Below, in pieces: positions 28,490-64,000 of a DNA stretch of 64,000 bases. Within the stretch, counting starts at the first letter, position 1, and the number at the start of each line of letters is the position of its first letter. The position numbers and the translations under genes are program-made. The notes under the pieces are model-generated. The model was given only the letters and a program-made list of their open reading frames with translations, was not told the origin of the DNA and made no database searches. Origin of the DNA: Macrostomum hystrix (taxonomy: Eukaryota > Animalia > Platyhelminthes); NCBI GenBank assembly GCA_950097015.1, contig CATNEN010000001.1, positions 19,282,001-19,346,000 of the forward strand, written 5' to 3'.

Positions 28490-28618
28490 ACCGATTGGGT
28501 CGACCGACCAACCGCAGTCGAGGTGAGACTCACTCATCCACGTCACATGCTGGATCTCAGGGGATTCCTTTGTCCATCAGGACCACATTCTCCAGAGCCG
28601 GTCCCTTGTATCCAACCG
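28490..28618 (-). pseudogene. Degenerate fragment of the array core (the second copy is split by the transposon at 32693/41493)
   Basis: CAGTCGAG...CACTCATCCACGTCACATGCTGGATCTCAGGGGATTCC...CCACATTCTCCAGAGCCGGTCC aligns to the core with deletions. Confidence 0.85.
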
Positions 28619-29242
28619 AGGACTTCTAAGATACTTCTAGGTGGTTCTTGTATCGAACCAAGGACTACTGAAGTACTAGCTAAGCACTAGTGGTCCTTGT
28701 ATCCAACCTTGGTTGTATCCTTATCTCTGACAGAAGCGGATACTGAAGCGTAGAGCTAGATTCTAATCAGCTTTAGTAAAACAAAATAAAAAATCCGGAA
28801 TTAATGCAGACCTACTCCAGCGTAAGAATGGATTGTAACACTCACTTATCGAATTTATAAAATCGTGGAACTAACGCACAAAACATTAAATTTCAGTAGA
28901 AGTATTCAGAAAACATAATTGAAACCAAGAAAAACAACACAGTTGAGTTTTTTAAAAGATCTACCAAAATGTATTGCTAGGGTATATTCGAAATCTAAGT
29001 CAGCAATGTTTGTTGTGCAAAAAGCATCGATGTACTAGCTACGTAAAAGTAGATTAAGTGCAAATTAAGATAATTATGACAACATGAAGTTTCAGTTTCC
29101 ATGGCCCGACTACTAAAAAACAGTTCGCGAAGATAAAGCATTACATTATCACCAAATTACAAATCTTAAGCATGTTAGAAAAAAATTTGCTCATAAGAGG
29201 AAAAGCTAGGATGAGACAACTAAACGAGACTCCTGTTCCTGC

Positions 29243-30250
29243 TCACAGCAGGTGGAACAGCATGCGGATCTGGCTCTCCGACAGCGCCGTGTTGGCGACG
29301 GCCACCGCACGGACCGAACCCTGCAACATGTACGAGTCAAGATCCCGCCAACCGACTTGAAGGCACGACTTGGTCATGAGTGGAAACAGACTGGGAGACA
29401 GTAGCAGCACGGCAGAATCTGGCAAAAAGTTGGAGCCGATGAAAAACTGGGCTTTGACAGCAATGCTATCAAAGACGACACCGACAACAATGAGCTGCTC
29501 AGAGTCAGTTGGTAGGACAGCCTTGAGAGACTCGTATCTCTCTTTTGAGTTCATCGGGTTCAGGTACAATTTTTTTGAAACTAGTCTATCACTGAATTCC
29601 CAAAAATGGGAAAAGATCAAATCTCTTTTCAACTGGCACTCATTCAGCTCGATGAAGCAGCATTGCTTCGGAGTTCTCTTCAGGTGCAGCACCCAGGTGT
29701 AGGAGCCTGAGAAGTCCAGACCGACCGGATCGTCCACCCACAGTCGAGACGACACTCCGTCCATGCGAGCGCCCTCACTCGTCCACGTCACATTGCTGGA
29801 TCTCATGGGATTCCTCTGTCCACCAGGGCCGCACACCACATTCTCCAGAGCCGGTCCTCTGTCTCCAACCCACACAGCACTGAAGTGCTCGTTCGCAGTG
29901 ATGGCATCGTACTCAGAGTCCACAATGATCTCGCAATCAAACTGATCTCGCAGTCCAGCAGTCGATGAGCTGATGTTGAAGAGGCTGAGCAGGTGGCACA
30001 CCTGACTGAATCGGAACAGCGCGCACGAGGCGTCTCGCTTGCTCCACTGCACCACGCCGACGCTGTTGAGCTGGAACTCGCGACTCGACACGAAGCAGTC
30101 GAGCAGGGAGACAGAAGGCTTCTGCCACGTCGACGGCGACTCGCTAAGACACTGAGCCCGGCCAACTCGGTACTGACTCACAACGTAGAATTGCTATGAA
30201 AGTTTTGCGAGCAATAATATGAGGAGCGTCCAAGCTATCGCTGTGGATCG
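29243..30250 (-). CDS. Array copy C: chimeric gene (N-type 1 from A + C-type gamma from E)
   Basis: 5' part and upstream flank match copy A (offset 4155). 3' part and downstream flank match copy E (offset 12958). Confidence 0.7.
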
Positions 30251-31088
30251 CTAGGGGTGTAAATTGAGTGGTGCCTGTTAGGCGGTTGGGTAGTGCCGGC
30301 TGCCCGTCATTCTGTTGTTTCAGACCGTTTTGATTGGCTCGGCCTTGTCTTTGCCTTCTCTCACCCTCCTCCTCCGTCCCTTCTCTGTGTGTCCTGAGCC
30401 GCCACCTGATTGGCTGGACGCGGGTGTTGTCTGTCAAACCTTACCCCAGCCCTGCGTGGCTTTGCCCCTCCCGCCAATCAGCCCTGCGTGGCTTGCCCGT
30501 CCACCAGCCAGCGCGTACAGCCCTCCCTCCCTGCACGCTGATGGCTTGACTTTGGTGGTTTGTGCACCGCTAACCATGTCTGACCCACTCCCTCAGGTAG
30601 CTGCCCTATTTTTGTAGCATCGTCTGCCCCGTACCTGGGTTTTCGATCCGTAATGACGGTCTCTCACTGCGAAGACTAAATTTATTGCATGAAAGAAATC
30701 TCATATGCCAGCGCCAATTCCTTACTGCACGATCTTACTATGGAGTACTGCAGGAGCGTCCAAACGCCTGGTTCATTGATTAGCGTAGTTTCAAATAATA
30801 GTACTGTAGGCTGGGGATCCGGAACTGACCGCAGTCACTGCACTTGCAAAAAGCAACTAGAAAGTATATATCTGCGGGTGAATATTTCACGAGGTAAGTA
30901 GCCGAGTTGGCTTCTATTCTTTAGCAGGCATGAAAGCGCAGAATGCTTTCTGCCAAACATTCCTCAATTTTACTGCCCATTGACTCAGAAAACACAGCGC
31001 TGTGTGAGAAGACAATCACGTCGTTTGTGCAAAAATGGCTGTAAAATTCCAGTCCAGAATATCAGCGGAATCACTGCAGCGAAGTGCT

Positions 31089-32090
31089 TCAGTGATTCGA
31101 AAAGAGCCGTCTAATCTGTTCCTCCGTCAGCACCGAGTTGGCCACAGCGACGGCTCTGACCACGCCGTCCAGTAGGCCAGCAGTCAAACTGCGCCATCCG
31201 ACCTTCAGGCAGAATTCTCTTTCACTAAAATTCGAGTTGGAAAACAATTTGAGCGCAGCTTCAGGTAGAAAAGCAGTTCCCAGAAAAAACTTGCAGCCGC
31301 CAGCCGACCTATTAAACACAACACCTGCAATGAAAAACTGCTCTGGCACTTTGGGCAGCACCGATCCTGTCCCAAACCGGCTCGGCTGACCAGGGTTCAG
31401 GTAGAGAGCGTGGCTGACACCAGAGCCAAAACTGTACTCCCAGAAGTGATCGCTATAGCCGCTTGATCCGCATCTGAAAAGCTCAACGAACGACTGATCG
31501 CTGGGCTTTCTCCTCAGGTGCAGCACCCAGGTGTAGGAGCCTGAGAAGTCCAGACCGACCGGATCGTCCACCCACAGTCGAGACGACACTCCGTCCATGC
31601 GAGCGCCCTCACTCGTCCACGTCACATTGCTGGATCTCATGGGATTCCTCTGTCCACCAGGGCCGCACACCACATTCTCCAGAGCCGGTCCCCTGTCTCC
31701 AACCCACACAGCACTGAAGTGCTCGTTCGCCGTGATGGCATCGTACTCAGAGTCCACAATGATCTCGCAGTCAAACTGATCTCGCAGTCCAGCAGTCGAT
31801 GAGCTGATGTTGAAGAGGCTGAGCAGGTGGCACACCTGACTGAATCGGAACAGCGCGCACGAGGCATTTCGTCGTGTTCGCTGCACCACGCCGACGCTGT
31901 TGAGCTGGAACTCGCGACTCGACACGAAGCAGTCAATTAGGGAGACAGAAGGCTTCTGCCACGTCGACAGCGACTCGCTAAGACACTGAGACCGGCCAAG
32001 TCTGTAATGACTCAGGACAAACGATTCTTCAGATGGTTTAAGGCAGGCTAGAATTATCAAAGCTACAGTAAGCACTACTTTGTATGACAT
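31089..32090 (-). CDS. Array copy D, identical duplicate of copy B
   Basis: Same 333-aa translation as 26934-27935. Confidence 0.75.
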   Translation of the reverse strand: MSYKVVLTVALIILACLKPSEESFVLSHYRLGRSQCLSESLSTWQKPSVSLIDCFVSSREFQLNSVGVVQRTRRNASCALFRFSQVCHLLSLFNISSSTAGLRDQFDCEIIVDSEYDAITANEHFSAVWVGDRGPALENVVCGPGGQRNPMRSSNVTWTSEGARMDGVSSRLWVDDPVGLDFSGSYTWVLHLRRKPSDQSFVELFRCGSSGYSDHFWEYSFGSGVSHALYLNPGQPSRFGTGSVLPKVPEQFFIAGVVFNRSAGGCKFFLGTAFLPEAALKLFSNSNFSEREFCLKVGWRSLTAGLLDGVVRAVAVANSVLTEEQIRRLFSNH

Positions 32091-33286
32091 TTTTCTTTTC
32101 TTTTTGTGGCGGTCGATGTTTGCAAGACAAATTTCTCTCTGCTGTTTTACGCGTGTTTAGAGTGAGAGAGTTTTATCATATTCTTCATGCTAGATTGAGT
32201 CTGATTGGCATTTGACATTGTGTGAATAGTTACAGGTGCCGCGTGTTTTGCAGGTGATCACACATTTTTCTCAGAGCTTTTGATGAATGCTTGTTGAGAA
32301 GATCAACTGTTGTACTGGAAATACATGCTGAACTAAGCTTTCAAGTCACTCGCGAGAACACAGGGGCAACCAGAGTGAAGCCCACAGTTTTGCTTGAAGT
32401 TAGGGCATTTTCTTAGAAAACCTCCTTTGACGGAGTTGATCGGAACTAGAGAACAATGTCATATGCCTTAAACAATCGTTTGTCCTGAGTCATTACAGAC
32501 TTGGCCGGTCTCAGTGTCTTAGCGAGTCGCTGTCGACTTGGCAGAACAAATTTGTAAATAATTTTCACCGGTAAAGTCCAATGTAGAGAACATTTGACTT
32601 TCTCTTCATATGCAGCACTCACAAGTGGGAAGGAGCCAGTTCAAACCGATTGGGTCGACCGACCAACCGCAGTCGAGGTGAGACTCACTCATCCCCAGTG
32701 GGAAAAAACGTTCCGCCTGACGTTCCGGCGACCGTCCGTTTTTGGTCGGGCGACCGGATTTTAGGCGGTATTAATGTCCGCACGCCTGGCGCGCCGGGCG
32801 GGCCCGCCCCGGGCGACTGTTATATATATTTTTAGCTTAAAATCCTTTCAATCTACTGTTAGTAGCATGTGATGAAACTCCATGAGTCTGATTTCTAGCT
32901 AGCTGCTTCCCATTCCCGCTTTCCGCTCGCTACCCGCTTATTGCTCCCGCTCCTCGCTACCCGCTCCTGTCCCACTCATTCCCGTGTTACTACGCGTTGA
33001 ATCGATTATTCCAGTACGTCACATCAGCAAGATAATGGAACTAGTATACCCTGCATGAGAGGCGTAAATATTTTATTTAAGCTAGCATTTTCGATTGTAT
33101 TTACGAGCGTATAATTTAAGTAGTAAAAAATTACATTTAATAATATGGAACATGCAACATAAAGTTATGACACGCAAGACATGGCATAAATTAAAGTAAA
33201 AAGTGCGAAGCTCAAATGTAAAATTAAGTTAAGTAATGCATTTTTCAGTTCAGGGGATTTCTGTTTCAGCATAATAAATAAAGTTT

Positions 33287-35533: not shown

Positions 35534-35852
35534 GTCGTAGACTCTCAGTTGAGTTTGGCTTCTGAATAGTTAGGACACTATATTCATATACCTGAGCTCA
35601 ACTCAACTCAACGATCTATTACTCAGCCCCCCCCCGATGCAGGTTGCTCATTGGCTGCCTGGGATTCACGTTTGGGATCACTTCCTCAGCCGCTCCCTGC
35701 ACATTCCCCAACTCCGTCTCCCTCTCCGTCAACCCTCTTTCTTTTTTAATTTTTCGTTATCACATTTTCTTACTACAGAATGTAATGCTATAATGCTATT
35801 ATTTCTACTATAATACTGGTACAATGACTATTCCTTTAATAGAAAAATCATA

Positions 35853-37853
35853 TTGACCCCTATAGATAGAATGTATACAAGCAGGCAAAAGCGGCGGCGT
35901 GTTGAGCAGCTGACTGATCTTCTGTTTAGTACCGACCGCAGGGCTAATACAAATGCAAAGTGCACTGTGAATGCTGTGAGCCAGGTAGAGTCGCAAGAGG
36001 CTGAAGACGTGCTGCAGGAAGTGGCTGCTGAATCACTCCACCACCCTGTTTGCGTTGACGAGCTGCCAGAGGAGCCTCTGACAAGCGGCTTAGAGCAAGA
36101 AGAGGCCATTTTCGACTCCGAACTCCGCGTGGAAGATCAGCGGAGCATGGAAACGAAGCTGCTCGACCTTCTCGTTGTCTTCTTCGTTCTCTACAATGTC
36201 CCTCGGGAGGGCATTGACTTCCTTTGCCAAGGACTCAACAAGCTTGGAGTACCGGCCCCGAAGTCTGCTTACGTGATTCGGAGTCGTCTGGAGGAAAGCA
36301 AGTCCGGAGGAAAGGAGCAGAAGATGTCCATGGTGAAAGTTGGTGAGGGGTACTTCAGGTACATTTCTATAGTCTCTAATCTCAAATGGCTATTCTCGAA
36401 AGGTCTCTTAAGACTCACAACACCAGATCCCTTGAGTTCAACGGACGAATATAAAGTCTACAGCTTGAATGCTTTTGTGAACTCTGACGGCCTCCCAACT
36501 TTTAAGTCGTCCAACTTTGGTCTATGGCCTCTTCTGATGAGGATTCCCGAGGTCTTCGCCAGGCCCTTTGCTATTGGACTTTATGCTGGCAAAGGCAAAG
36601 CCCCACTTGACGACTATCTTCGCGAATTCTGCAAGGAGGCCACAGAACTGTCAAGACAGCCGGTGAAAATATGCGACTCGATTGGCATAATGTTTAAAAG
36701 CTTTTGCTTCGTTGTGGACACCCCCGCTCGATCGTACCTGTGTAGAATCGCAGGACACACTGCTTACGATGGGTGCAGCTATTGCCGAGCCCATGGGCTT
36801 TATGTTCAGGGCAGAGTGACTTTTCCTACGAAGGTCGAAGCACCTAGAAGTGCAAAAGAATACCGCGCAGGACAGGAAACCAATCAGGCGAATAGAAGAC
36901 TGTCGCCATTGCTGAATGTTCCGAATGTCGACTTTGTCAAGTCCTTTCCGGTCGAGGTTCAGCATGCAGTTTTTTTGGGAACCGTTCGCCGACTGTTTAC
37001 TTATCTGTTTGACAAGGATGAGGGCCGGAACTGCAAGATTAAGCCAAAAAAGATTAGTCTTCTGTCTGACAGGATAGAGTCGATCGCCAGCTGGACTCCT
37101 TCAGAATTTCAGCGGAGACCCAGGAGATTGGACAAGGACCTCAAGTTTCTGAAGGCCAGTGAATACAGGCAATGGGTTCTGTACCTAGCACCTGTACTTT
37201 TTAAGGGCGTTCTGCCTGACTACCTGTTCGACAATTTCATGCTGCTGCACTACGCACTCTTCGTGTACTCCTCACCTCGCCACTCAAAGCGCTTCATTCA
37301 GGCAAAGACTTCAATTGAGGTTTTCGTGCAGCAATGTGCCACTTACTTCGGGCAGGTGTCCATTAGCTATAATATGCATGCACTTCTGCACCTGGATGAC
37401 TTCGTCCGGCACTATGGAGGACTGGCAGACATCACGACATTTCCCTTCGAAAATTACCTAGGCGGACTCAAACGGCGCATCAAAGTTACGCGACACATGG
37501 CTGCCCATTCAGTGAAACAGATTCTGCTGCTTCGAGAACTAACTACAGACGATGCAGTACGCCGGATCCAGTTTTCCAACAAGAAGCGGGACAACTGCTG
37601 CTATATTAGCAAGAAAGTCGTTTTAATCGACAACATCAGTGGAGCTGTGGCGGAGGGGAGAGTCCTGCAACCTGTGGAGAACGTGTACACGTATCCCTAC
37701 AAATCTTTGACTTTGGGCATTGGTGTCTACCGCCTGACTGAAGAGTCTGCAACTGGTAGTCCGACCCACAAGTGCTGGCTTCTGCCGCATGTCGACTGTG
37801 CGAGGTCTGATCTCTTCTTCGTGATTCCGCTGGCTGGAGAAGATGGATATTAG
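35853..37853 (+). CDS. EnSpm/CACTA-family DDE transposase, 666 aa (the true start may be the ATG at 35871)
   Basis: NSDGLPTFKSS...WPLL, DTPARSY...GHTAYDGCSYC, KASEYRQW, YNMHALLHL and FPFENYLG motifs. No stops. Confidence 0.93.
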   Translation: MTPIDRMYTSRQKRRRVEQLTDLLFSTDRRANTNAKCTVNAVSQVESQEAEDVLQEVAAESLHHPVCVDELPEEPLTSGLEQEEAIFDSELRVEDQRSMETKLLDLLVVFFVLYNVPREGIDFLCQGLNKLGVPAPKSAYVIRSRLEESKSGGKEQKMSMVKVGEGYFRYISIVSNLKWLFSKGLLRLTTPDPLSSTDEYKVYSLNAFVNSDGLPTFKSSNFGLWPLLMRIPEVFARPFAIGLYAGKGKAPLDDYLREFCKEATELSRQPVKICDSIGIMFKSFCFVVDTPARSYLCRIAGHTAYDGCSYCRAHGLYVQGRVTFPTKVEAPRSAKEYRAGQETNQANRRLSPLLNVPNVDFVKSFPVEVQHAVFLGTVRRLFTYLFDKDEGRNCKIKPKKISLLSDRIESIASWTPSEFQRRPRRLDKDLKFLKASEYRQWVLYLAPVLFKGVLPDYLFDNFMLLHYALFVYSSPRHSKRFIQAKTSIEVFVQQCATYFGQVSISYNMHALLHLDDFVRHYGGLADITTFPFENYLGGLKRRIKVTRHMAAHSVKQILLLRELTTDDAVRRIQFSNKKRDNCCYISKKVVLIDNISGAVAEGRVLQPVENVYTYPYKSLTLGIGVYRLTEESATGSPTHKCWLLPHVDCARSDLFFVIPLAGEDGY

Positions 37854-42200: not shown

Positions 42201-43289
42201 TCACAGCAGGTGGAACAGCATGCGGATCTGGCTCTCCGACAGCGCCGTGTTGGCGACGGCCACCGCACGGACCGAACCCTGCAACATGTACGAGTCAAGA
42301 TCCCGCCAACCGACTTGAAGGCACGACTTGGTCATGAGTGGAAACAGACTGGGAGACAGTAGCAGCACGGCAGAATCTGGCAAAAAGTTGGAGCCGATGA
42401 AAAACTGGGCTTTGACAGCAATGCTATCAAAGACGACACCGACAACAATGAGCTGCTCAGAGTCAGTTGGTAGGACAGCCTTGAGAGACTCGTATCTCTC
42501 TTTTGAGTTCATCGGGTTCAGGTACAATTTTTTTGAAACTAGTCTATCACTGAATTCCCAAAAATGGGAAAAGATCAAATCTCTTTTCAACTGGCACTCA
42601 TTCAGCTCGATGAAGCAGCATTGCTTCGGAGTTCTCTTCAGGTGCAGCACCCAGGTGTAGGAGCCTGAGAAGTCCAGACCGACCGGATCGTCCACCCACA
42701 GTCGAGACGACACTCCGTCCATGCGAGCGCCCTCACTCGTCCACGTCACATTGCTGGATCTCATGGGATTCCTCTGTCCACCAGGGCCGCACACCACATT
42801 CTCCAGAGCCGGTCCTCTGTCTCCAACCCACACAGCACTGAAGTGCTCGTTCGCAGTGATGGCATCGTACTCAGAGTCCACAATGATCTCGCAATCAAAC
42901 TGATCTCGCAGTCCAGCAGTCGATGAGCTGATGTTGAAGAGGCTGAGCAGGTGGCACACCTGACTGAATCGGAACAGCGCGCACGAGGCGTCTCGCTTGC
43001 TCCACTGCACCACGCCGACGCTGTTTAGACGGAACTCGCGACTCGACACGAAGCAGTCGATCAGGGAGACGGAGGGCCGGGGCTTCTGCCAGACAGACAG
43101 TGACCTATTAACGCAGACTGAATTTTTCAGCTTGTACGTTGCCAAGGCCGTTTTCGCATGTGCCATGACGCACAGAAGCAGAAGCACGAGTATGTCCTGT
43201 CCCATAGATGCGGATAACTCACTTTTTTGTTGGGCGAGTAGCTCTAGGAGTCGAAGCAGTTTTCGCATCTCTGTCACAATGCCTTTCAT
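42201..43289 (-). CDS. Array copy E: secreted PAN-like + LamG-like protein (N-type 3, C-type gamma); likely start at ATG 43205
   Basis: Signal peptide MGQDILVLLLLCVMAHA, shared core, C-terminal half identical to copy C. Confidence 0.75.
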   Translation of the reverse strand: MKGIVTEMRKLLRLLELLAQQKSELSASMGQDILVLLLLCVMAHAKTALATYKLKNSVCVNRSLSVWQKPRPSVSLIDCFVSSREFRLNSVGVVQWSKRDASCALFRFSQVCHLLSLFNISSSTAGLRDQFDCEIIVDSEYDAITANEHFSAVWVGDRGPALENVVCGPGGQRNPMRSSNVTWTSEGARMDGVSSRLWVDDPVGLDFSGSYTWVLHLKRTPKQCCFIELNECQLKRDLIFSHFWEFSDRLVSKKLYLNPMNSKERYESLKAVLPTDSEQLIVVGVVFDSIAVKAQFFIGSNFLPDSAVLLLSPSLFPLMTKSCLQVGWRDLDSYMLQGSVRAVAVANTALSESQIRMLFHLL

Positions 43290-44499
43290 TTTATGGGGCT
43301 ACGATCGTAATTTACACAGGCGATTAGTTTTCAGGATGCTGTTTGTCGATGGAAAATTTTAATGCATTCGCAATTATTTGCCCTGCAAAGCCATCACTGT
43401 GAGCTGACCAAACAGTGCAACACAGCTGCACGACTTTTGTCATTATCGGCGAATGACAAAATAAAAACCTTAAACACGCATCATAGCAGATGCAGCTCAA
43501 GGCGGCTTCAGTTAAAAACTTCAAAGAAGACAAACACGACAATTGAGGTGCCGCGGATGACACAAATTTGTTTCCGTTTGCAGCTCAATGTGGCAGCTGT
43601 TTTTGATAATCTTCAACTATTTAACTGGCTGCAAGTCGCACAGTTACTAATCATTATTTACATTAATTACGTGAAAAAATCCGCTGTTTTTGCTGTAACC
43701 TTAGACAACACAATGAGTTAAGTGACAGGTCGGCTAATTATGTGGGCATTTGAAATACCCAATGGTCTCTGCCCAGCGGAACAAATCCCTTTGTCTTTCT
43801 ATTGTTAAACGAATTTGATTCTCTTATAGTTTAAACGCCATGAAACTTTGCCCGTAAAACTTGATATTTTATGTTGCATAAACATAACACTTTCAACGAT
43901 ATCTAAGGCATCACTGCCCCCGACTTGCATAATTTATGAGCAAGTAAATTGCACCTGTCACTCTCTGATCAATTTATTATTTAGTTAAACGGAATGCTGA
44001 TAAGGAAAAAAATTCTGTTTTATTTTATCACGCTTCTCGCTTGGAATCAAACTAATCGATCAAAAACGCGTTGTTCAACGTCAAAGCTATTTGATGTTGC
44101 ACGATTTTTTATTCGAAGCAATGGCCCACAAAAACCTGTTTGGTGTTACAATAAAACTGATTATCTATTCAGTGAACAAAAGTCACAAAAATCCAGAAAA
44201 TTTTTGTTAACATTTAAAACTTTGCAGAGTGACAGAAAAAGACTACGGATTCCACTAACTTCCACTAACTTCGTAATTAAGTTAGATTTTTATCATAGCA
44301 AATCTGTTTAGGAAAATGTAAAGATACGAGCTAGGATCATAAGTACTCGTACTGTACTAAGCATGAAGACTAGTATAATATAAAGGTACGTGTTGGGCGT
44401 TGGGCGCCTCAGTTAAAATGTCTGCCAGTCAGTGCTTCATATCGATCTTGATGTACCGATTCATAATCCTGTGAGTCGCATCAGTTTCGCTCGTCCTGC

Positions 44500-51800: not shown

Positions 51801-54800
51801 GTATTGACAAACCATTCCATTTCCTTGCCGCAACAAACGCTGCAGGCGACCACTGTGCAAAAGTTCAACGCTCAAAAGGAGAAAAACGACGAGAAAAAGC
51901 AGGCGCTGGCTGAAGTCAGCGTCGAGCTGGCCGAGACAACCAAGGAGCGCAACGACCTGACCAAGGTGAGCCGAGTCAACTGAGATGCCTGTCTGTGATG
52001 CCTGAACTTCCTGAAAGGATGTCTGACCTGTCTGAGGTGATGTCCGAACCGCCTGAATGGATATCTGAACTAATTGAAGGGGTGTCTGAACTGCCCGAAA
52101 GGATTCTGAACTACCTGAATGGATGTCTTACCCGAAAGGATGTTAAACTGCCAGAAGGGATGTCTGAACTGCCTGAATGGATGTCTGAACTGCCTGAATG
52201 GATGTCTGAACTGCCTGAAGGGATGTTAAACTGCCTGAAGGGATGTTAAACTGCCTGAAGGGATGTTAAACTGCCTGAATGGATGTTAAACTGCCTGAAG
52301 GGATGTTCAACTGCCTGAAGGGATGTCTAAACTGCCTGAATGGATGTCTGAACTGCCTGAAGGGATGTCTGAACTGCCTGAAGGGATGTTAAACTGCCTG
52401 AAGGGATGTCTGAACTGCCTGAATGGATGTCTGAACTGCCTGAAGGGATGTTAAACTGCCTGAAGGGAACTGCCTGAAGGGATGTCTAACTGTCTGAAGG
52501 ATGTCTAAACTGCCTGGGTCCCTGAGACTCCTTAAGCCTGAAACTAAAGACTCAATGCCCACAATTTCCCCGCCTCTTCCCAACAGCAAAACCAGAAGCT
52601 GGAGCTGAAGAACGCCAGCCTGGAGTCCCAGGAGGCCGACAACCGGCTGAGAATCCAACGCCAGCTGGAGCGCAACAGAATGCTGCGGGATGAAATGTGA
52701 GTGCCGTGCAGCTCGATTCCCAATCGACAAGCTGAAATCCGCAAACCCCAAATCTATATATAATGTAAGATTTTAATTCCGCTGAATCCCGATCCACTAA
52801 ATCAAAATACACTGGATCCTAATCATTTAAATACCAAATCTGAATCAAAATCCTTTGAATCCCAATCCTTTGAATCCCAAAACACTGAATCACAATCCAG
52901 TGGATCCCAAACCACTGAATCACAATCCAGTGGATCCCAAACCACTGAATCCCAATCCACAAGATCCCTATCCACTGAATCCCAATCCACAAGATCCCAA
53001 ACCACTGAATCCCAATCCACAAGATCCCAAACCACTGAATCCCAATCCACAAGATCCCTATTCACTGAATCCCAATCCACAAGATCCCTATCCACCAGAT
53101 CCCAATCCACAAGATCCCAATCCACTGAATCCCAATCCACAAGATCCCAAACCACTGAATCCCAATCCACAAGATCCCAAACCACTGAATCCCAATCCAC
53201 AAGATCCCAAACCACTGAATCCCAATCCACAAGATCCCAAACCACTGAATCCCAATCCACTGAATCCCAATCCACAAGATCCCAATCCACTGAATCCCAA
53301 TCCACAAGATCCCAAACACTGAATCCCAATCCACAAGATCCCAATCCACTGAATCCCAATCCACAAGATCCCAATCCACTGAATCCCAATCCACAAGATC
53401 CCAATCCACTGAATCCCAATCCACAAGATCCCAATCCACTGAATCCCAATCCACAAGATCCCAATCCACTGAATCCCAATCCACAAGATCCCAATCCACT
53501 GAATCCCAATCCACAAGATCCCAATCCACTGAATCCCAATCCACAAGATCCCTATCCACTGAATCCTAAGCCACTAAATCCTAATTATCTGGATCCTAAT
53601 CCACTGAGTCTCTATTCTCTGAATCCCATTTACCTACACCCACCTGACTTACCCATCAACTCACCTTTTCCATGAAATCAAAGCCCGCTAAAAACTTTAT
53701 TCTGCAGTGAGCGAATCCGTCAGCTTAACAAATCGATGACAGAAAATCACCAGAGACTCATGGCCCAGATGAAAAAAACCGTCGAGGATTTCAACGACAA
53801 GAGTAAAAAGCAGGAGAGGCGCCGAGATTTCAGCATTCAGAAGAAAGGAGAGCTCAAAGACGGTGAGTATCGTGAATTGGGGTAAACGATGGTTCCTGAG
53901 CTCGAATACAAACCTCATTTCCTACCGCTTCAGTCCTGGAAGAAGCCCTGCTGGTGAGGGAGCAAGATGCTAAAAAAGTCCGCGAGATGAGCGAAGTGTG
54001 AGTTCATTTTTTCGTGTTTCTTTAGAAATATAAAAAAATTACAAGTATAATATTTACAGTAGAAACCCACGCAATTTACACCCGGGGGAATGACCGGAAA
54101 GTGGGTGTTTCAAATACCCACTGCCTACTACGATAGCTCCCAAACCCAATGACCCATATTCATAAAAGTCTACCATTTAGATTAACATTTTCTGCTCTTT
54201 ACGATGAACTAACTTTAAAGAAGAACCTAGTGACAAGGACAAATAAATATTTATTTGCAAAAGCCTCTTTGGCGAATCCACATCGGTTCAAAATTGTGCA
54301 AATTACCAAAGTAATCAATACATTATATTGATTATGTACTATTCTGGTATTTGAAACATGTGGCTTTTCTACTGTTTAGTGATGCAAAGAGGAACATTCA
54401 GCGCGATGTTTTATTAATGCAGTCAAAATATGAATTGAAACAGATCTTCAATTTCAGCCGGTAAAATATTCGATTTGTGATACTTTTAGGCTAGTCAGTC
54501 GCCCGCATTTCATCGATACAATGATCATTGATAATATTTGACACCACTAATCATTGATAGGTGTCAAAGTCGTTTTATCACCTCGCCACTGTCCTGTCTT
54601 TCAGTTTAACAGATGGATTCAGTGAACTCGATTGAGAATTCGCTCAATGGCAGAATGTACTGAGCGAGCTTGCTGAATAATGAAATTCACTTACACTTTT
54701 GCCACGCACCGTGATCTATTCTGTCGCTTTAATTTCACTCTTATGGATAATTATCTACTCTTCATTTAAGTTGATTAGAAATATTCTTGAAGATTTAGTT

Positions 54801-57800
54801 TTCAACTATCGGGGCGATGTTTCTAGCGGTCTGTACAATGGGCCAGTGTCTTTTTCGCTTTTGCTTCATCAGTCTGCTGATTGGAATTGTCACATTGTAT
54901 AGTTTCTTTTCAATGCTGCACAAGTTGTGGCTTCGTTTTCTGTTAGAGCTACGAGTAGATTCGAAAGGTTTAAAGGCGGTGGCGGCCTGCGGCGAGAGCA
55001 CGTTAATTTGGGGCGCAGTCGCGGAGAGAAGGCTTTGGGGGCTTCTAGTGCAATTCACACCCACGAGGGCCAACCCCCAAGACACAATGAGACAGTCAGC
55101 AGATGTACAGTCCCTGTGTAAGTATCGTGTTTGCGTGTGCTCACGATATGGGATGGTATATCGTGATGGTATCCCACTGATCACGATATGGTCACGACTC
55201 CTCGCTGGCTGTGGATTGACTATCGCCAAAAATAATGTACAAGTGCCCACTGCCCTCCTGCACATATTATTACAATAAGAATCCAGGTGGAAAGTTTTTT
55301 TTCTTATGGTTCTTCTGGAGGAACATAAGGAACACTTGGAGGAACACTTGGTGCTTGGAAATTCAAGATTTTCTGGACCCAATTGTCGTTAACGTTTGAT
55401 CTCCATGAACTACCCGCAGGCTTCAAGAGGCCCGCAACGATTTGGCCTCCAAAGCGGAGGACATTGGGCGGCTGCAGCAGGAGATCATCGACATGGAGAA
55501 CCGCCGAGTTGAGCTGGCTGATGCTCACAGGTGACTGACAAATTACTGCTGCGTTTAGATGCCTGAAAATCAAAATCAGCTAACATAAAATAGCATTAAA
55601 TGTGCATTGTGCATACGGCTTGAGTGCAAGCGCACGTGGCACGGTTTGATTGGCTGGGGAGTTTGCTGTCTGCCCTAAACCGGTCTAGACCGGGATGGGT
55701 GGTTAGCTGTTGACGTGGCTGTCTAAATAAATGAAAAGGTGCGCAGGCCTTTTCATGCCTTGCAATCTTTTCAACCTTCTAAATCACAACCGCTATGGTC
55801 TTCCTTTGGCCACGCTGCCTCAACACAAGCACTAATAGCATTATTACAATTCTAACCATCTTCTGATTGTTAATCTCTGGCTGTTATGCTGACGGCTGTC
55901 GTTTGGAGGTCTTTTAACGATTTTAACCTCCGTGTTCTGTTGATTCTAATTAAATTTCTAGTTTAATACGCTTGTACCATAACGTGACTAAATTTTTCTT
56001 TATAAAAATGAAACATTTTTGACGCCGTGAAAATGCAGGGCCGAGCAGGAGGGCTGGCTGAACCCCAGCGAGCAGTCGGAGGACAGGTATTTCCCACTTC
56101 CCAGCTCCCGTCACTTCTAGAGAACAAAGTAATCTACATTCACCAAATCCCTGAAATAACTCTCCACAAAATCGGGAGAACTCTAAACAGTGCAATTCTC
56201 CCACCTGCCGTCACCGTCAAGCGAGTCGCAGCAGCGGCTGACGCGGCTTTTCCGCGGCGGTCGCCAGCAAAAAATTGGCGCCTTCGATCCGCGCGCCGAC
56301 GCGCAGGAGATCCGGCGCACACTGGAGCTGCACCGGCGCCGGCGAGAGGAGGCGCGCAGGTCGCCGGCCGATTTCGGCTTGTAATTAACGCGGCGGAATC
56401 ACCTTGATTATTACAAGGCGTGTCTGAAAAGTAGCGTTACTTTTACTTGGTGCGGAGATTTGGTGCGCCGCTTCGACACAAGTTTGGTGTCCTTCGAAAG
56501 CCGCATGTATCTTATTTTAAATGATAAAGATTCAACTGATATCGATTTGGATGTATATATGCATTTGAGTAGTGCGAGCGCTTTCAAACGACACCAAACT
56601 TGTGTCCATGCGACTTACTAAAAGTCCGCGGCAAGTTAAAGTAGCAATTATTTTGCGGACAACCCCTCGTAGAAGTGTTGGAAGTGTTGTTTTACTGAAA
56701 CTGTAACTTAAACTGCCATTTCTGTGCATATTCCTATAAGCATTATATCGATTATAAGAAAAGAGAATAGTGTATTGCATTTGCAACCTTAGCTAGAATT
56801 GTGTAACGTTTTCAGTACTAAAAAAGACCAACACTGCTGAGTTACTCTCTATTTTCTTCAGCGCACTCTATTTAATTTCCTAGCCAAGAAAATCTACCAA
56901 ATGACCTCTTTTAGGTCCATCCATTTTAAAGTTGTTATGTTACGCACAAATCATAATTTTGCCAGCACACGAGTAGTGAAAAACTAGAACAACTATTCAC
57001 CTAAATCATGATTCGCTGATAATATATTCACAGGTCCGCTGTGTTGATGTTTAACAAGCAGATCGCCGAAATGAAGGAACAGCTGACCAGAGAGCGAAGC
57101 GAAAGGTGAGATTTCTTCTTCACACTAACAGTAACGTAGCCAGAATGAGCGATAAGGTCTTAGTAAGAAAACAAAATAATTTTCAGAATGACTATTCAGG
57201 ACACAAACGACAAGCTGCAGGACACAATCGACAAGTTCAACAAGGAGCAGAACGCCTTCAATCGCCAGATGAACAAGCTCATCACGGATCTCAAGCACGA
57301 AAATGTCGCGCTTAACGACGAGGTGATTGCACAGCGCCCAATATGACTGTGGCCTCGCCACGGAATTGAGCTTGGTGCACGGAATGTGTTACCGTTCCTC
57401 TACTCACCTCATATGTGTTCTGCAATACCAAATCTCTAATGTGGCAGAGCAAAATAGCTGATTATGGCTCATTTCCCCCCATAATCGTACCCTCCCAGTG
57501 ATTAAAATGTATCACATGAGTAAATGCCAAATCTGTCGCTTATCCCCCTAACAGCACAACCAGCTTGTCGGCAAGATTAAAGAGGATACAGACCGGCGTG
57601 TCAGGCTGGAGGGCGAGATAGAGCATGGACGACGCGACTTCGCGGCCGTGACGAAGCAGAAGGAGGGCGTCATCGACTTCCTCGAGCGAGATCTGCAGCG
57701 ACTTAGCAGCGACAGGGCCCAGCGCAGTCGCGAGCTTGAGGAGCTACTGCCCAAGTTCACCGAGTTTGAAGCCTTCTTCGAGCGCACGCTGGCCGACTAC

Positions 57801-58742
57801 GAAGCGTTGAAGAAGGCGATCGTGGCACTGAAGAATCGCAAGACGGGCCTGGAGGAGAGCTCGCACCGCACTGACTCGCAGATCAGTCAGCTCACTGGCG
57901 AGATCTCGGAGCTGGAGCGGGAGAAGCAGCGGAAGCAGCAGCAGGCAGAGAGGCAGCTTGAGGAGCTGGCTGCGGAGCGGATGACGGCTGAGAAGGACAT
58001 CTACAAGCTCGGCTGCAAGCTCAAGACAGTACTGGAGGAGAACGCCCGGCTCCGCAACGGCATTCAGGGGTGCGCAATCAGGACTAGTGATGATCGCGGG
58101 GGGACCAAAACAACAGCTTGTATGGGGTGTACCAAAAAAGATTATAAAGGGGTATCCCAAATAACAGCTTCCAAAAGGGTCCCAAAATGGTGTAAATAGG
58201 GTTTTCAGAACAACAGTTTTTAATGGGTGTCCCAAAAATACTTTGCGTTGGGTGAAGTAAACAAGTCTGCATAGGTGTCCGAATTTTTTGCTTGCGTGAG
58301 GTGACCCAAAAATAATGTGCATGGGGGGGTGTCCCTAGCGACAGTATGAATGTGGTTATACGAGCTAGTTTTGGGGTTATAGTTTTTAGGGACCAGCTCG
58401 CAAAGCTGCGAGTGCTTACACAGCCGCTGAGAAAGATGAGATCTCTCATTCGATGACAGGTTCGAGCAGCGGATGGGCCGGATGCGACTCACCTGGGAGG
58501 CGGCGCTGCACTCCAAGGTGCGCCAGGAGGAGCGCCGAGTGGCCGCTCGGCAGGGTCTGGAGAGTGGGTGGCGGGATGACGCGGATATGCGCTCGGGATT
58601 CCAGGAGGCCGACCTGCGGCTGTTGGCCAACCTGGCCGACATCGTGGGCGAGACGGAGGCACGTGGCGCGGCGCTGGAGCGAGTCACGGACAGCCTGGTT
58701 GACGAGCTGCGCGGACTGGACGCATTCCTGCAGACAGCCTGA
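48834..58742 (+). CDS. CCDC175: CCDC175-like coiled-coil protein, ~15 exons (e.g. 48834-48912, ~49379-49465, ~49569-49680, 50341-~50476, ~50561-50792, 51846-51965, ~52587-52696, ~53708-53862, ~55421-55529, ~56222-56359, 57034-57105, 57188-~57322, ~57555-58068, 58460-58742)
   Basis: GT-AG-bounded coiled-coil exons. ELHRNKARDILETETIK...PDEINREIH-EAVRAARALN and LNERLADKAGEQISLNE resemble the CCDC175 N-terminus as recalled. AATAAA follows the stop (~58753). Exon edges are approximate. Confidence 0.65.
50900..51760. repeat. ~19-bp intronic minisatellite
   Basis: CTAGAGATGGGATCT(A/G)GAT units. Confidence 0.92.
51990..52515. repeat. 20-21-bp intronic minisatellite
   Basis: AACTGCCTGAAGGGATGT(TA/CTG) units. 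Confidence 0.92.
52850..53600. repeat. 30-bp (2x15) intronic minisatellite
   Basis: CCCAATCCACAAGAT-CCCAATCCACTGAAT units. Confidence 0.97.
56435..56650. repeat. Intronic inverted repeat, MITE-like
   Basis: GACACAAGTTTGGTGTCCTTCGAAAGC (56475-56501) pairs with GCTTTCAAACGACACCAAACTTGTGTC (56580-56607), with a weaker outward extension. Confidence 0.75.
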
Positions 58743-59007
58743 GTAGATTTGTAATAAAAACTCAATTATTATTAATTATTAAGCTACAAGAACTTCCAAG
58801 TTGAGATTAGTTAAAAAACTTGACGCTACCTAAAATTTAACTTTAACTGATGTACAAATATAAAATAAATAAAAAGCCCAAGTTACGATTCGTACATTAT
58901 TTGGCTTTCGTTTTCGCAAACACGAATGAGTTTTATTACAGGCTGAGCATTCAATCAACAAAAAATTTTTTTTTCATCAGTGATGTGTGATTTCTATTCA
59001 CCACTAC

Positions 59008-59170
59008 TCAGTGCTCGGTGAATCAGTGCTAGGTGAATCAGTGCTGGGTGAATCAGTACTGAGTGAATCAGTGCTTGGTAAATGAGCGCTGGGTGAATAA
59101 GTGATGCGTCAATCAGAGCTGGGTGAATTGGTGTTTGATGAATCAGTGACGATTGCTGGGTTAATCAGTG
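59008..59170. repeat. 15-bp minisatellite abutting the LINE 5' end
   Basis: GAATCAGTGCTGGGT units. Confidence 0.9.
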
Positions 59171-59179
59171 TTTCACCAA

Positions 59180-60288
59180 TCCGTCATGAGGGGCGAAACC
59201 AAGGATCTCTGTCAGCATTCCATCATCCAGGACACCCGAGTCAAAGGCATGCGCATCAACTTGACCTTCCGAGTAACTTCTCCAGCCATCCAGGACATCG
59301 ATGACTTCCGTCAAGCTCATTCCAAGCCGTCCAAACCCCTTGACACTTCCGTCTATGAGGTCGTCGAGGTATGTGACCGAACCATCACCGAGGAACAATC
59401 TTCTCCTTCAACTTCTCAACGTCAAGGTAACTCTTCTGTCCACGACAGCCAATTTCCGGACCAGCCACCTTCCAATTCCACTTCTCAGCCGCCGAAAGGC
59501 AAGGTCGCTCCAGTTCTCTTCCTCCTTCCAAAATCGACTCTTGATGAACTTAGGTTCGAGAGGTTCCTTAAGGATAACTTCCCAACAGTCCGCATCAGGT
59601 CCGTCCAACGCTGCTTCTATTCTTCCGGCTTTAAATTCTTTGCTCTTGACTTCCAAGGCTACCAACATCTAACTTCCGACGAGCTTAGGCATCCGACCAT
59701 CGACGGCATCCAGGTAGAGCGCCCGCCTTTCCATCCGACGTGAGGACGCCCAGGTCAACTCCAGGCGCCTTCCTCCAAACATCACGACTCCAAAAGCCTT
59801 GTCCTTTATCATCCGATAGTTATCACTTGCCACAGATCTCAAGGATCTTCTCTTAAGAATCCAGACGGTCGAGCCCAAAGTCTCAGGCATTGTCCGGATC
59901 GTTTCTTCTTCTTCCAACGAGCCGACTCAGTTTGTCCGAGCCTTTACTTCCGACTTTAGTACTCAAGCCCGACGCATCTCCAAAGGTATCCACATAGGCT
60001 TCTTTCACTTCACGAATCACGAATACATCTCCATCACCATTGATACCAATGGCAATGGTAACGAACTTCAGCATCTCAGCATCTCACTCTTCTATAAGGC
60101 CCCAACACCGGAGACCCTCAACACCAGCCTTCTTGACTCTCTTCTCTCATCAAAGTACAGCCTGCTTCTCGGTGATCTCAACTGCAGAATGGCGGCACTC
60201 CAGGGTGGTGAAAGCCCAGAAAATTACACTGGAAAGCTACTCTGCCGATGACTCATAGATTCCGATTCACCTCCCGTGATCGCTTTTA
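59180..60288 (+). mobile_element. Degenerate non-LTR retrotransposon 5' part: AlkB-like C-terminal motif, ORF1-like region and internally deleted APE endonuclease
   Basis: VMRGETKDLCQHSI...RINLTFR; ORF1-like EPTQFVRAF...KGIHIGFFHF; then EYISITI...FYKAP...LLLGDLNC...ENYTGKLL (AP-endonuclease motifs, 60000-60250). Confidence 0.75.
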
Positions 60289-60289
60289 C

Positions 60290-61422
60290 ACAATTTTAAC
60301 ACCACGGGCAGCAATCTGAGCACAACATTCTTCGGAGCTCACCTTGAAGTGATCCAGGCCTTCATTGGGCAACACATCTTCACGCGCCCGCCGGAAGCTA
60401 ACTCGCCTCTATAAGTCGGCATTATTGCTAACAACCTTTATCTGCGATTCGGCCTTACTATTTGGCAAGATGCCTTCATCTGTGCTAATTGGTGCCACCT
60501 GTCGCTCGGGCCTCCTGCCGTAAATAATCCTCACGACTACTGGTATGACATGTACAACAACCAGATACCGTACCAGTTTCAGCCCCTCGCCAGCTTCGAA
60601 CTCCACCGCGCCGTGCCGTACGAATGGGCTCTAGGTCTGGGTAAAGTTGAGGCTGACATCACCGCCGACTACGTTGTGTTTGGCGCAGGCTCATGAATCC
60701 TGCTGGCCTGCACACTAACTACGGCTCTGACAATTATGGCAAGCGAGCGGTGTCACCGCTTTGGTCAAAGCTGGAGCTTTATGGCTACCAAGTCGTTAAT
60801 GCGCTGAATCAGTACTACGACGCGAACGTGGCTGTTGCTATTACGCAATATCAGTTTCCTCACAACCGTTCAGCTAGCCATGTTGCCGGTACGTACGTCG
60901 CGGCACCTCCTCTCGGCGCTCCTGCCATCATTGCTGGTACGCCTTTTCTGAATCCTGCAACTCTGCTTAGTGCTAGCAACTCAAATCACTTCATCATGTC
61001 GCCGTCCATCACAACTGCCAACATGATCCCAGGCCTGTCTGCTTTTCTGTTGAGCATGATAGGCGGGAAGAAGGACTGGAACCTATCTGGCGTGTGCCCA
61101 TCTGCCTTCATGCCTTGCTGCATTGCGCCTTACAATATGGACTTCGGCCTTGCAGCTCTTGTCAGGACAAGTCGGCCAGGACGTGTTGCGTGCTCACCGC
61201 GACAAGGTAGCCGGCGAGGTTGCCAAGGCTATCGAGGCGGTCAAGCGCGGCACAGGAGACCGGCATGTCGAGCGTGAGCAACTGGATGCCCGTGCTGCTG
61301 CTAGCGCCCAAGCGGTTGACAATGCTGTCAACGCCGCCATAAGGGTCGCCAACCAAGCGGCGGGTGAGGCTACCGCTGCGCCGCCTGCACCGGGTAGTGC
61401 GCAGTCTACTGCTTTAAACTAG
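60290..61422 (+). pseudogene. Endogenous totivirus-like capsid (ORF1) C-terminal remnant
   Basis: Long coding-like frame with a premature TAA (~60412) and frameshifts (~60690, ~61160). VPYEWALG motif and Ala-rich tail ending at T TTA AAC TAG directly before the RdRp frame. The capsid call rests mainly on position. Confidence 0.65.
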
Positions 61423-61470
61423 GCTGGGCACGCTTGACCGGGCAGTATAGCAATTGCTGTCTGCTCGGAT
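61413..61470 (+). promoter_or_regulatory. -1 programmed ribosomal frameshift signal (slippery TTTAAAC + downstream stem-loop)
   Basis: T TTA AAC at 61413-61419 is in the correct X XXY YYZ phase. The -1 frame reads open into the 61434 ORF. Hairpin CCGGGCAG-TATAGC-AATT-GCTGT-CTGCTCGG at 61439-61468. Confidence 0.85.
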
Positions 61471-62850
61471 TCGAGGCTGATCTTGACAGTTTATTTGGCG
61501 ACAGCCTCAAAGCGTGTCTTAAATATTTTACACCTCGCCAAATAAAAACTGACTTGCGTTTTGTTCGCTCTAATTTTTGTTGTGTTTATTGCCGTGTTGT
61601 GCATGATATTGCCTCTGCTGTACCTTACTCAACGCTGTTTTTTATGCCTCCCACTCTTGCTCCTGTTCATTGCCCTGATTTTAATATTCATTATTCGTTT
61701 GCTTTTCCTCATCAATGCACGCGCGACCACTTGCTGGCTGTCGAGCTTGAGTACCAGCGAGGCATGATGCCACAAGATCTGTACGACGCGTGGTTCGAAT
61801 TAAATTCTGCAAATTATGCCACTGACTTTGGCTCCAGGTCTATGTTGTACTGGGATGTGCGTCAAGATTTTCTGATTGGTGACTATCAATGCAGCTCCGT
61901 CAATGATTATTTGCCAACTAATGTCATTATAGACAACCTGTTGAATGAGGGGCTGCCTCTCAAGCACTGTTGCCGTGGTTCTTACTTAGAGTGGCGCCCT
62001 GGTTTGCCTGGTCACTTGCTGGAGCGTTGCTTCGACTTTGTTGACGATTCTAACAGGACTATGACTTCTATGCGCGCTAGCCACTTGATAGATTGTGCTC
62101 GCAACTTGGGCAAGGCCGAGATGTGGGAATCTGCCCTTGCCTCTGTCCTCAGCGTCTTACCTGTTGGATCACTAGATCACACCGTCGCCACGTGCCTACT
62201 CTTCGCTGTCAGTGATTTTGAGAATTGGCGGCGCTACAGCGAGTTAATGAGACCAGATGCAGCATGTTGCCTGACTGTCGACGGATTTGCCAAATATACA
62301 AAGGCTTTGTCTGTTGCGAAGCGCCGCACCCAAAGATGGGTAGACGGCTCGCCGATGAGCGTATCTAGCGTTGCTATTTGCGCCTATCTAGAAATGGCCA
62401 CTGGCAGGAACAGAACATTGACTAATTGGGATGATGAGATAAAAAAGCGCTGTCATGAAGTGCGAGTCATCTTGGACCTCTTGGAGGATGACGACTATCA
62501 TAGACGCATGGAAGACGCGCTACTGGTACGCACCCGTGAATTAGTGCCTGGCTGCGTTCATGAAATCAGCTACAAGGAGTACGTTGCCACTAGATATCTC
62601 CACATAGCATATGGTTCGAGTTGTGGCGCAAAAGCTCACACTGCTGATGGCAACCGCACTTTCCATTTAAACAAGCGCGGGCTATTCGAGTGTCTTCCTG
62701 CCAGTGATATATTAACCTGGCTGGACCTAGAGCCTTCTCTATTATCTATCGGTAGCGAGAAGGGTGAGCCAGGCAAGTCACATGAGATCCTCGCTTCTAA
62801 TATAGTGGCCTACGTCATTGTGGATTGTTTAGTGCTGATGGTGCTGCAAC
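61413..62850 (+). CDS. Totivirus-like (Ghabrivirales) RdRp, N-terminal ~480 aa, truncated before motifs A-C
   Basis: YLEMATGR...NWDDEIKKR, YGSS, LNKRGLFE and SEKGEPGKSHEILA (motif F-like K.E.GK.R.I). No ATG is needed because it is entered by frameshift. No GDD catalytic region. Confidence 0.82.
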
Positions 62851-63155
62851 AGCCGACTATGTGAGGACGACCTGGCCTACTATACCTCAGCACATCATTC
62901 AACTAATCAGGAATAGGCGTAGGCTTAGAAAGATGTATCACCAAACTAGGATAGACGAATTCAGTCTCAGCCAACGGACTTGCTACACAGATTAGGAAAG
63001 AAATCCAACAGTTTAGAGTTAACAAATTCAATAGCCTTTGCACCAAAATCACTCTAGCTAGCCTTAAATTCGACAACAATAAATTCTGGAAAGACATCCG
63101 GATAATGATGGGCACCCAGAGGCAATTAACCAAATTTCCAAATCTAGTCTATCTA
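62851..63155 (+). mobile_element. LINE ORF2 inter-domain (APE-RT tether) fragment, Jockey/I-group-like
   Basis: IPQHIIQLIRNRRRLRKMYHQTR [frameshift] ANGLATQIRKEIQQFR...NKFWKDIR...FPNL is typical of the region between the endonuclease and RT. Confidence 0.75.
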
Positions 63156-63223
63156 GATTAGCTAGTAGCTAATCTACTAGCTAAACCACGAAGTGATAAA
63201 ATGAGGCCAGAACCCAGTACCTC

Positions 63224-63224
<1 letters not shown>

Positions 63225-63262
<38 letters not shown>
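63225..63262. repeat. (ATT)n microsatellite, possibly the (TAA)n tail of a minus-strand retroelement
   Basis: About 12 perfect ATT units. Confidence 0.85.
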
Positions 63263-63263
<1 letters not shown>

Positions 63264-63617
63264 ATTGAGGTGCGCACGCCGATTGGGTTCTGAATTTTTT
63301 GTTTATTTGATGTTTGAGGCTGCCTGAACTGAGGATCAGTATTGAAGGCTTCTTTTTTGAATATGTTGCATGCTGAACTTGTATCCCAGCCCCAATGCTA
63401 ATGGACTTTTATTTGTCAGCCATCACACACTTAAGTTACGCTCTGCTCCTTTTGTCTATGTTCCGCAGCCCACAGAGATGCATCTCTGTGGATCCCCTCA
63501 GCATGTTTACATATAAAGAAAGTCTTGTTACAAATACACGCACAAAAAGGGACTTCATGTCACACTCCCATTAAGCATTACTTCGTCTCCATTGAGGTGC
63601 AAGCTACAGAAACATCA

Positions 63618-64000
63618 ATGGCGTCGCGTAGCCTTGGCGAACTGCCTCTGGAACATGCGGCTCGCGCGCAGACTTGGCTCATCGCTTTCGAGGCGATAGC
63701 TCGCGCCAAAGGATGGGAAGACAAAAGCGACAGGAAATGCATTGCTGACAACTTCCTAGCCTGTTGCGGCCTCAGCGCTGTGGAAAAGTTACAGAATCTA
63801 ATCTCGCCGCGAGCCATTACTGATCTGGCATTCACAGAAATTCAAGATGAATTGCTGAATTATTTGCGACCCAAAGAAAAACTTACTATTGCCGAACGTG
63901 TTCGCTTCTTCTCGGTTCGACAAGCACCAAAAGATTCCATAACCGACTTCGTGAGTCGCCTACGTCAGGCTGCGAAGGACTGTAAGTTTGACGACTTAAA
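63618..64000 (+). mobile_element. Ty3/Gypsy-type LTR retrotransposon gag, 5' part (runs off the window)
   Basis: MASRSLGEL...FLACCG...LISP...YLRPKEKLTIAERVRFFSVRQAPKDSITDFVSRLRQAAKDCKF is a retrotransposon gag signature. No LTR identified. Confidence 0.85.

Follow-up and report, generated by a model that had tools for sequence, protein, structure and literature searches.

How does a stretch of an RNA virus come to lie inside a cellular retrotransposon? This question is raised by a locus of the flatworm Macrostomum hystrix, located in the 64,000-nucleotide window that was analysed here (assembly GCA_950097015.1, contig CATNEN010000001.1, positions 19,282,001–19,346,000 of the forward strand; coordinates below count from the first letter of the window). 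Between positions 59175 and 63223 we find a mosaic in which a long interspersed nuclear element (LINE), a toti-like virus, a short host sequence, and again the LINE follow each other, all on the plus strand. The pieces, their order, their strand, their copy number, and the collinearity of the two LINE flanks could be observed directly. As for the origin of the mosaic, we suggest that the insert was probably written in one insertion event by a LINE reverse transcriptase (RT) which jumped serially between RNA templates; we infer both the identity of the enzyme and the single event. A sequence-only reading of the same DNA had proposed a template switch of the RT from the LINE to the virus and back to the LINE. 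The collinear flanks and the lack of a target site duplication (TSD) at the viral piece speak for this proposal, but its mechanism is likely rather than proven, and a third piece, of host sequence, had been overlooked.

Is the viral part really integrated in the host DNA? As comparison material for the locus we used contigs of the public runs X1, X2, and X3. A 3165-nt X1 contig is identical to the window from 59873 to 63037 (0 differences, depth 92.1) and spans both insert joints. A contig over the unique flank (55008–59350) has an X1 depth of 86 and serves as the single-copy reference. The insert is present as a single copy, the 3165-nt contig being the only X1 cover across 60290–62767, and both element flanks are covered by several diverged X1 contigs with a summed depth of ∼380–920. 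In X2, a second sample, three contigs cover the viral part with ∼99% identity (one short indel and 7 differences over 640 letters). Of the three, one extends ∼20 letters into the element side and was not counted, as the bridging rule asks for 31 letters. X2 has no contigs beyond 61229 and X3 none over the viral part, neither of which is evidence of absence or silence. Within the 64-kb window no other copy of the element, the virus, or the short host piece was found. One might argue that mis-assembly or contamination joined a viral sequence to a repeat in silico, since the sole contig bridging both joints fully stems from X1, which is possibly the source data of the window and therefore may not be independent support. 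The chance of such an artefact is nevertheless minimal, as the bridging contig matches the window perfectly at single-copy depth, the viral reading frame is interrupted by a stop and by frame changes, and X2 also contains the viral part. Thus the integration is confirmed, with the reservation on X1, and the claim of the sequence-only reading that a virus segment sits co-oriented inside a LINE is borne out by one single-copy-depth contig across both joints and by the open reading frames (ORFs) of element and virus lying on one strand.

Are the two flanks parts of the same element? The 5′ flank comprises a truncated ORF1 (59175–60008, plus strand; one frameshift, one stop, 5′ end approximate) and, behind an internal deletion joint at 60008–60011, a multi-copy stretch (60011–60277, plus strand, ∼85% identity to its siblings) which we take, from its motifs, to be the middle of the APE-like endonuclease region of ORF2. 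The 3′ flank (62883–63223, plus strand) is presumably the tether-like region of ORF2, again by its motifs, and bears a short deletion and a fold-back near 63152–63180, with a hairpin at 63154–63176. Searches of Pfam, PDB, homologues, and folds gave no match for the endonuclease piece (model pLDDT 47, a fold-confidence score), and Pfam gave only weak irrelevant rows for the tether pieces. Independently of these labels, both flanks are confirmed as collinear parts of one element family by a 775-nt X1 sibling contig which carries the end of the 5′ flank at 60277 (68 letters) and continues, after at most ∼438 nt, with 62883 (contig position 507). A second sibling contig has 157 letters upstream of 62883 that are unmatched in the window. 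Therefore 157 to ∼438 nt of the element were replaced by the insert, in agreement with the expectation that the LINE resumes a few hundred bases further on. The earlier boundaries have to be shifted. The endonuclease codons had been followed to ∼60285, while sibling similarity ends at 60277 and no tool recognised an endonuclease; the LINE had been thought to resume at ∼62850, while it does so at 62883, with the virus ending near 62832 and a third piece of 49 nt in between; and the element does not end at 63155 but continues to ∼63220 by sibling similarity.

The element family is dispersed and multi-copy, with several sibling contigs of ∼84–93% identity and raised depth over both flanks, and by the rough measure of summed depth it has ∼5–10 copies. 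Two sibling contigs align at 62883–63149 with 34 and 44 differences in 267 positions, and a sibling alignment over 63008–63220 shows 16 differences and 23 extra letters. At the deletion joint the similarity of two sibling contigs breaks off at 60008, and another two have different sequence ahead of 60011. These four contigs, together with the lost CCHC knuckles of ORF1, corroborate the internal deletion from ORF1 to the endonuclease that had been noticed near 60010; it removed the knuckles, the end of ORF1, and probably the start of ORF2. The visible element sequence stops at ∼63223, so that the RT and the 3′ end lie beyond view, and an (ATT)n tract follows (63224–63266; X1 depth ∼7200 at 63293) which is either the tail of the element or part of the neighbouring high-copy repeat. 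Short imperfect inverted repeats are seen on both sides of this tract (63205–63295), the right arm lying in the high-copy repeat (depth ∼7200).

The distance between the two LINE ends bears on an alternative in which two retrotranspositions occurred: a two- or three-part chimera of virus, host scrap, and LINE 3′ part would have inserted into, or next to, a pre-existing family member, whose 3′ part was thereby lost. Two independent events are among the alternatives stated for tripartite chimeras (PMC4476161), and no return jump would be needed. On the other hand, the incoming 5′ end would be viral and devoid of guiding homology, so that it would be a coincidence for the two LINE ends to map no more than ∼438 nt apart in the family. 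We regard two insertions as quite improbable.

What is the virus? The viral piece is ∼2.55 kb long (∼60280–62832, plus strand) and holds the 3′ part of a toti-like capsid ORF, a predicted −1 ribosomal frameshift site, and the N-terminal half of a toti-like RNA-dependent RNA polymerase. The capsid part (60280–61422, plus strand) contains one in-frame stop (60412–60414) and two frame changes. Its frame 60463–60684 matches the N-terminal, capsid-side part of the related protein P0015 with 37.9 bits as compared to at most 24.1 bits in 300 shuffles. As the first 20 capsid codons match P0015 weakly (their score is equalled by 85 of 2000 shuffles within the 80-residue stretch where the match is expected, and by 806 of 2000 when the entire capsid part is allowed), the left viral joint is placed at 60278 to ∼60290. 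The capsid ORF lies upstream of the polymerase ORF and overlaps it, and the frameshift signal is predicted at this overlap (61413–61490, plus strand), where a TTTAAAC heptamer directly 5′ of the capsid stop is followed by a long hairpin. The insert contains three heptamers of this type, of which no other lies at the overlap; the hairpin has a z-score of −3.23 and none of 200 shuffles folds equally well. The polymerase part (61398–62832, plus strand) belongs to a frame of 488 codons that is open from 61398 to 62864 and ends before the catalytic motifs. Its openness is not significant when compared with the three breaks in the capsid part (∼0.09, hand estimate).

The translation of 61743–62843 matches 94 proteins at E ≤ 1e-3 (HMMER), the best with an E-value of 2.6e-35 and 36% identity. 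Among the 46 of these 94 hits that were scanned, Pfam RdRP_4 is found on 29 (16 of 18 and 13 of 28) and no RT or endonuclease domain on any; the polymerase piece of the window itself has no Pfam hit. The records of 29 hits were consulted: four are named as viruses (Murri virus, Hangzhou paraphaenocladius impensus totivirus 1, Mute swan feces associated toti-like virus 2, Totiviridae sp.), and another two are proteins from arthropod genomes. Most alignments stop at 62819–62843, five continue to 62849–62903, and they end before the catalytic core of the relative P0001. By its RdRP_4 relatives and its toti-like named hits the virus is a divergent toti-like double-stranded RNA (dsRNA) virus and not the plus-strand RNA virus that had been assumed, and as it is a dsRNA virus the template would be the viral plus-strand transcript. 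In a quick tree of 69 rows, from which 26 of the 94 hits were left out as short or unaligned, the window polymerase sits on a long branch (2.51) and in no set with a support of at least 95. The locus thus seems to record a hitherto unknown, deep-branching toti-like virus in this host. With the 488-residue polymerase frame, neither the word-index search nor the PDB sequences gave a match; IMG/VR scans gave none either, ESM Atlas returned mixed RNA-virus polymerases at low recognition, which is a lead only, and Rfam yielded one weak irrelevant row. Three related polymerase pieces of toti-like type are located on long contigs, namely P0003, P0071, and P0026 (sand fly, 96 kb; copepod, 27.8 Mb; one record of 430 kb), which are probably other endogenous viral elements (EVEs) of the same virus group.

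What lies between the virus and the resuming LINE? The 49 nt at 62833–62881 (plus strand), missed by the sequence-only reading, are a piece of a repeated, transcribed, exon-like host sequence. They match an X1 contig that differs from the window on either side of 62833–62881; in X3, a contig of depth 31.9 covers 62833–62879 with 3 differences in 47. The X1 and X3 continuations of the donor diverge at a GAG/GT site, AT-rich sequence following in X1, and we read this as an exon whose continuation is an intron in DNA but the next exon in RNA. Although listed as 'DNA?', X2 and X3 behave as RNA runs, as both show GT..AG joints for the gene upstream of the element. By a rough hand estimate from bin depth the donor has about ten copies' worth of cover. 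To judge from the apparent splice donor the piece lies in donor sense, which fits serial template jumps, and the host template was presumably RNA.

According to our preferred reading of serial jumps, complementary DNA (cDNA) synthesis would have started on the 3′ side of the element and the LINE RNA would have been copied to 62883. The enzyme would then have jumped to a host transcript, copied 49 nt, and jumped to the viral plus-strand transcript, proceeding from inside the polymerase ORF over the frameshift site into the capsid ORF, before it went back to the LINE RNA, a few hundred bases nearer to its 5′ end. Another skip at 60011/60008 and a 5′ truncation inside the AlkB-like domain of ORF1 would have ended the process. 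Totivirids have no DNA stage, and thus reverse transcription is required. Passages of PMC2805616 support this view of totivirids. Serial jumps are further supported by the replacement of element sequence and by element and viral ORFs lying on one strand. The same copy shows two further short-range rearrangements (60008/60011 and 63152–63165). In addition, LINE enzymes have been described to switch templates twice and thereby to produce directly joined, co-oriented parts (PMC2104539; PMC4476161). The element copy at the locus is dead; it belongs to a LINE-type family of low copy number, has since decayed, and is likely neutral.

Exact repeats longer than 5 nt are not found around the insert, nor longer than 7 nt at the ends of the element, and no poly(A) bounding the insert is seen by eye; on this point the sequence-only reading, which had found neither TSD nor poly(A) around the viral part, was right. 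Three imperfect repeats were considered and rejected: the best one-mismatch repeat (9 nt, 59164/63335) as a TSD, which is at chance level by hand estimate, and two repeats that rough hand estimates attribute to chance, one of 21 nt with 81% identity (59740 and 62861) and one inverted, of 20 nt (58948/63293). A repair patch would account equally well for the collinear flanks and for a replacement that left no TSD. Here a double-strand break in a resident LINE copy would have been widened by resection over a few hundred bases and then filled with loose viral and host cDNA from any cellular RT, be it of LINE or Ty3/gypsy type. End-joining can leave fold-back scars, and the fold-back at 63154–63176 is of this kind. 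A gypsy-like gag adjoins the locus, and the insect EVEs of one survey likewise showed no TSD or poly(A) (PMC2987831). However, the break must have hit an element of only ∼5–10 copies, even if the finding was chosen for lying in a LINE, and both pieces must have landed co-oriented. We therefore consider such a patch possible, yet distinctly less probable than serial jumps of the LINE enzyme.

Several points weigh against these serial jumps. No TSD was found around the whole element, whose 3′ end is outside the view, and thus the hallmark that proves the fungal tripartite case is missing. Two captured pieces will share the orientation of the element in one of four cases by chance alone, the additional deletions may have arisen later, and the 49 nt lie within one apparent exon, so that a DNA donor is possible. 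No tool confirmed the naming of the endonuclease and tether regions, and the Ty3/gypsy-like gag lies ∼400 nt downstream (weak Pfam hits). The chimeras covered here (PMC2104539; PMC4476161) carry the foreign RNA as their 5′ part, often in full length, and the passages on them do not describe a return to the LINE. Finally, the virus hybrids of mosquitoes formed with long terminal repeat (LTR) elements (PMC6797480).

How does the locus compare to known cases? MINE and WEIRD-MgSINE-MGL of Magnaporthe (PMC2104539) and the U6/L1 chimeras (PMC4476161) likewise consist of directly joined, co-oriented copies of different RNAs adjacent to LINE sequence, with more than one jump; in these multi-jump chimeras it is the TSD which proves the single event. 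The window differs from them by its viral template, its internal foreign fragments, the same LINE family on both sides, and the lack of a detected TSD. The recombinants and EVEs of Aedes (PMC6797480; PMC5497376) likewise hold internal RNA-virus fragments in retroelements, and template switching has been proposed for them. Their partners are LTR elements, however, and antisense piRNAs (Piwi-interacting RNAs) were shown there; the Aedes EVE regions are even poorer in non-LTR elements than the genome (3.9 vs 12.8%). Mammalian viral mRNAs that were retroposed, likely by LINEs, are RNA-virus sequences as well (PMC2987831), but represent whole genes with poly(A) and TSD and without a flanking LINE body, whereas the insert in the window has neither hallmark. 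R1/TRAS and Jockey elements with a captured viral superfamily 1 (SF1) helicase also have RNA-virus sequence fused into a LINE ORF2 (PMC4686597; PMC6338049). There an intact domain is kept in active families, while the window has a single dead copy, in which the event may be preserved in its raw form. The totivirus-derived nuclear sequences of yeasts, known as NIRVs (non-retroviral integrated RNA viruses), have a similar toti-like capsid–polymerase layout (PMC2805616; PMC6166632), in contrast to which the window has an animal-like host, arthropod-type toti-like relatives (at most 38% identity over long matches), and a broken capsid. Toti-like viruses occur in a tapeworm (bioRxiv 10.1101/803247). 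We found no description of a LINE–virus–host–LINE sandwich in the literature searched, Repbase, supplements, and most subscription journals being outside this search. We place the locus among the known cases of virus capture by retroelements, as a variant whose mechanism is likely, although without proof.

If our preferred reading of serial jumps is true, the locus would be a genomic fossil of a LINE enzyme that left its own RNA for host and viral transcripts and then returned. It would then illustrate a route for the capture of RNA viruses and for the gain of viral domains by LINEs, which in the available passages of PMC6338049 and PMC4686597 is presumed or doubted but not shown. Taken by itself, a lone decayed copy such as this is moderately significant.

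Does the insert serve as an antiviral memory via piRNAs or small interfering RNAs (siRNAs)? The locus is single-copy and lies ∼300 nt behind an expressed upstream gene, and the insert is in virus sense to that gene; therefore read-through would be virus-sense. The protective EVE piRNAs of Aedes are antisense (PMC6797480). The X2 contigs over the viral part have a depth of 2.7–5.4 as compared to 42–60 for the spliced contigs of the upstream gene, which shows presence only. The memory function suggested in the sequence-only reading is unsupported and seems improbable to us, and as the capsid is broken, a counterfeit-capsid role as in PMC6166632 is not to be expected.

Which LINE holds the virus? 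The ORF1 flank, with a summed X1 depth of 773–921 compared to 86 for unique DNA, starts with the last 30 codons of an AlkB-like domain (∼59183–59275, plus strand; Pfam 2OG-FeII_Oxy_2 with E 0.0057 on 59180–59275, under the curated cut-off), and two conserved blocks follow which by eye look RRM-like (RNA recognition motif), a name that no tool gave them. This flank matches one protein, the 962-residue P0095 (tblastn, 59192–59722 and 59805–60002, E 4e-22), which has a full AlkB-family domain, the two conserved blocks, and then three CCHC knuckles (702–754); in the ORF1 of the window no such knuckles are found. The P0095 domain scores with E 1.3e-28 for 2OG-FeII_Oxy_2 (101 bits, cut-off 31.2) and is closest to ALKBH3 (E 3.5e-24), so that it can be classed by sequence as an AlkB-family dioxygenase of the ALKBH2/3 group, ALKBH3-like. 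In LINEs with a type I ORF1, among them I, Jockey, R1, Tad1, and L2, this ORF has one or more RRM domains directly before CCHC knuckles (PMC4120745), and the three CCHC motifs of P0095 directly after the matched blocks would conform to this layout if the blocks are RRMs. The fusion of AlkB to a CCHC-type ORF1 is common to two elements that are only ∼30% identical, which points to a long-kept function in RNA repair or demethylation in a LINE lineage.

An AlkB-fused LINE ORF1 was likewise not described in the literature covered by the same search, and the term AlkB is absent from the main text, supplements not covered, of PMC6338049, PMC6431247, and PMC4120745. A Ty3/Gypsy element of Phalaenopsis is a retroelement with an AlkB-family domain too (PMC9289625), but this is an LTR element with a separate ORF for an ALKBH5-like demethylase of N6-methyladenosine (m6A), whereas the lineage of the window has an ALKBH2/3-like domain fused to the front of a CCHC-type LINE ORF1. 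Metagenome scans and ESM Atlas gave no homologue of ORF1. A 23-residue metagenome match (L001) was rejected as chance, P0095 matching it over 11 residues only (E 0.22). One could imagine that the ALKBH3-like demethylase of this old LINE lineage clears methyl groups which block the RT, so that the RT moves to viral and host RNAs and returns, time and again depositing virus fragments in transcribed loci that feed antiviral small RNAs, as a heritable non-LTR virus memory; this idea is highly speculative and we consider it unlikely. At 59300–59536, X3 contigs (depth 3–9) carry the letters of the window where sibling copies differ, and thus this very copy is present in an apparent RNA run, either as transcript or as carried-over DNA.

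The surroundings of the mosaic are rich in repeats. Upstream, a spliced coiled-coil gene (52585–58858) on the same strand ends ∼300 nt before the element, with GT..AG joints in X2 and X3. Downstream, the sequence after 63220 consists of (ATT)n, then the high-copy repeat, and then a Ty3/gypsy-like gag start (63435–63998; Pfam Retrotrans_gag E 0.087, Gag_p24_C E 0.028) that runs off the window. Farther away, five near-identical minus-strand ORFs of 314–365 residues (25094–32156 and 42201–43298) form a tandem family with a shared N-terminal and a variable C-terminal half; Pfam named no family on the one member scanned. An ORF of 679 residues (35814–37853) resembles a DNA-transposon transposase by eye, the Pfam scan giving no hit. 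The window starts within a satellite of 46 nt (1–9135, ∼199 copies, 97% identity) that runs off its beginning, and many minisatellite introns follow; we take this style to resemble that of macrostomid flatworm genomes.

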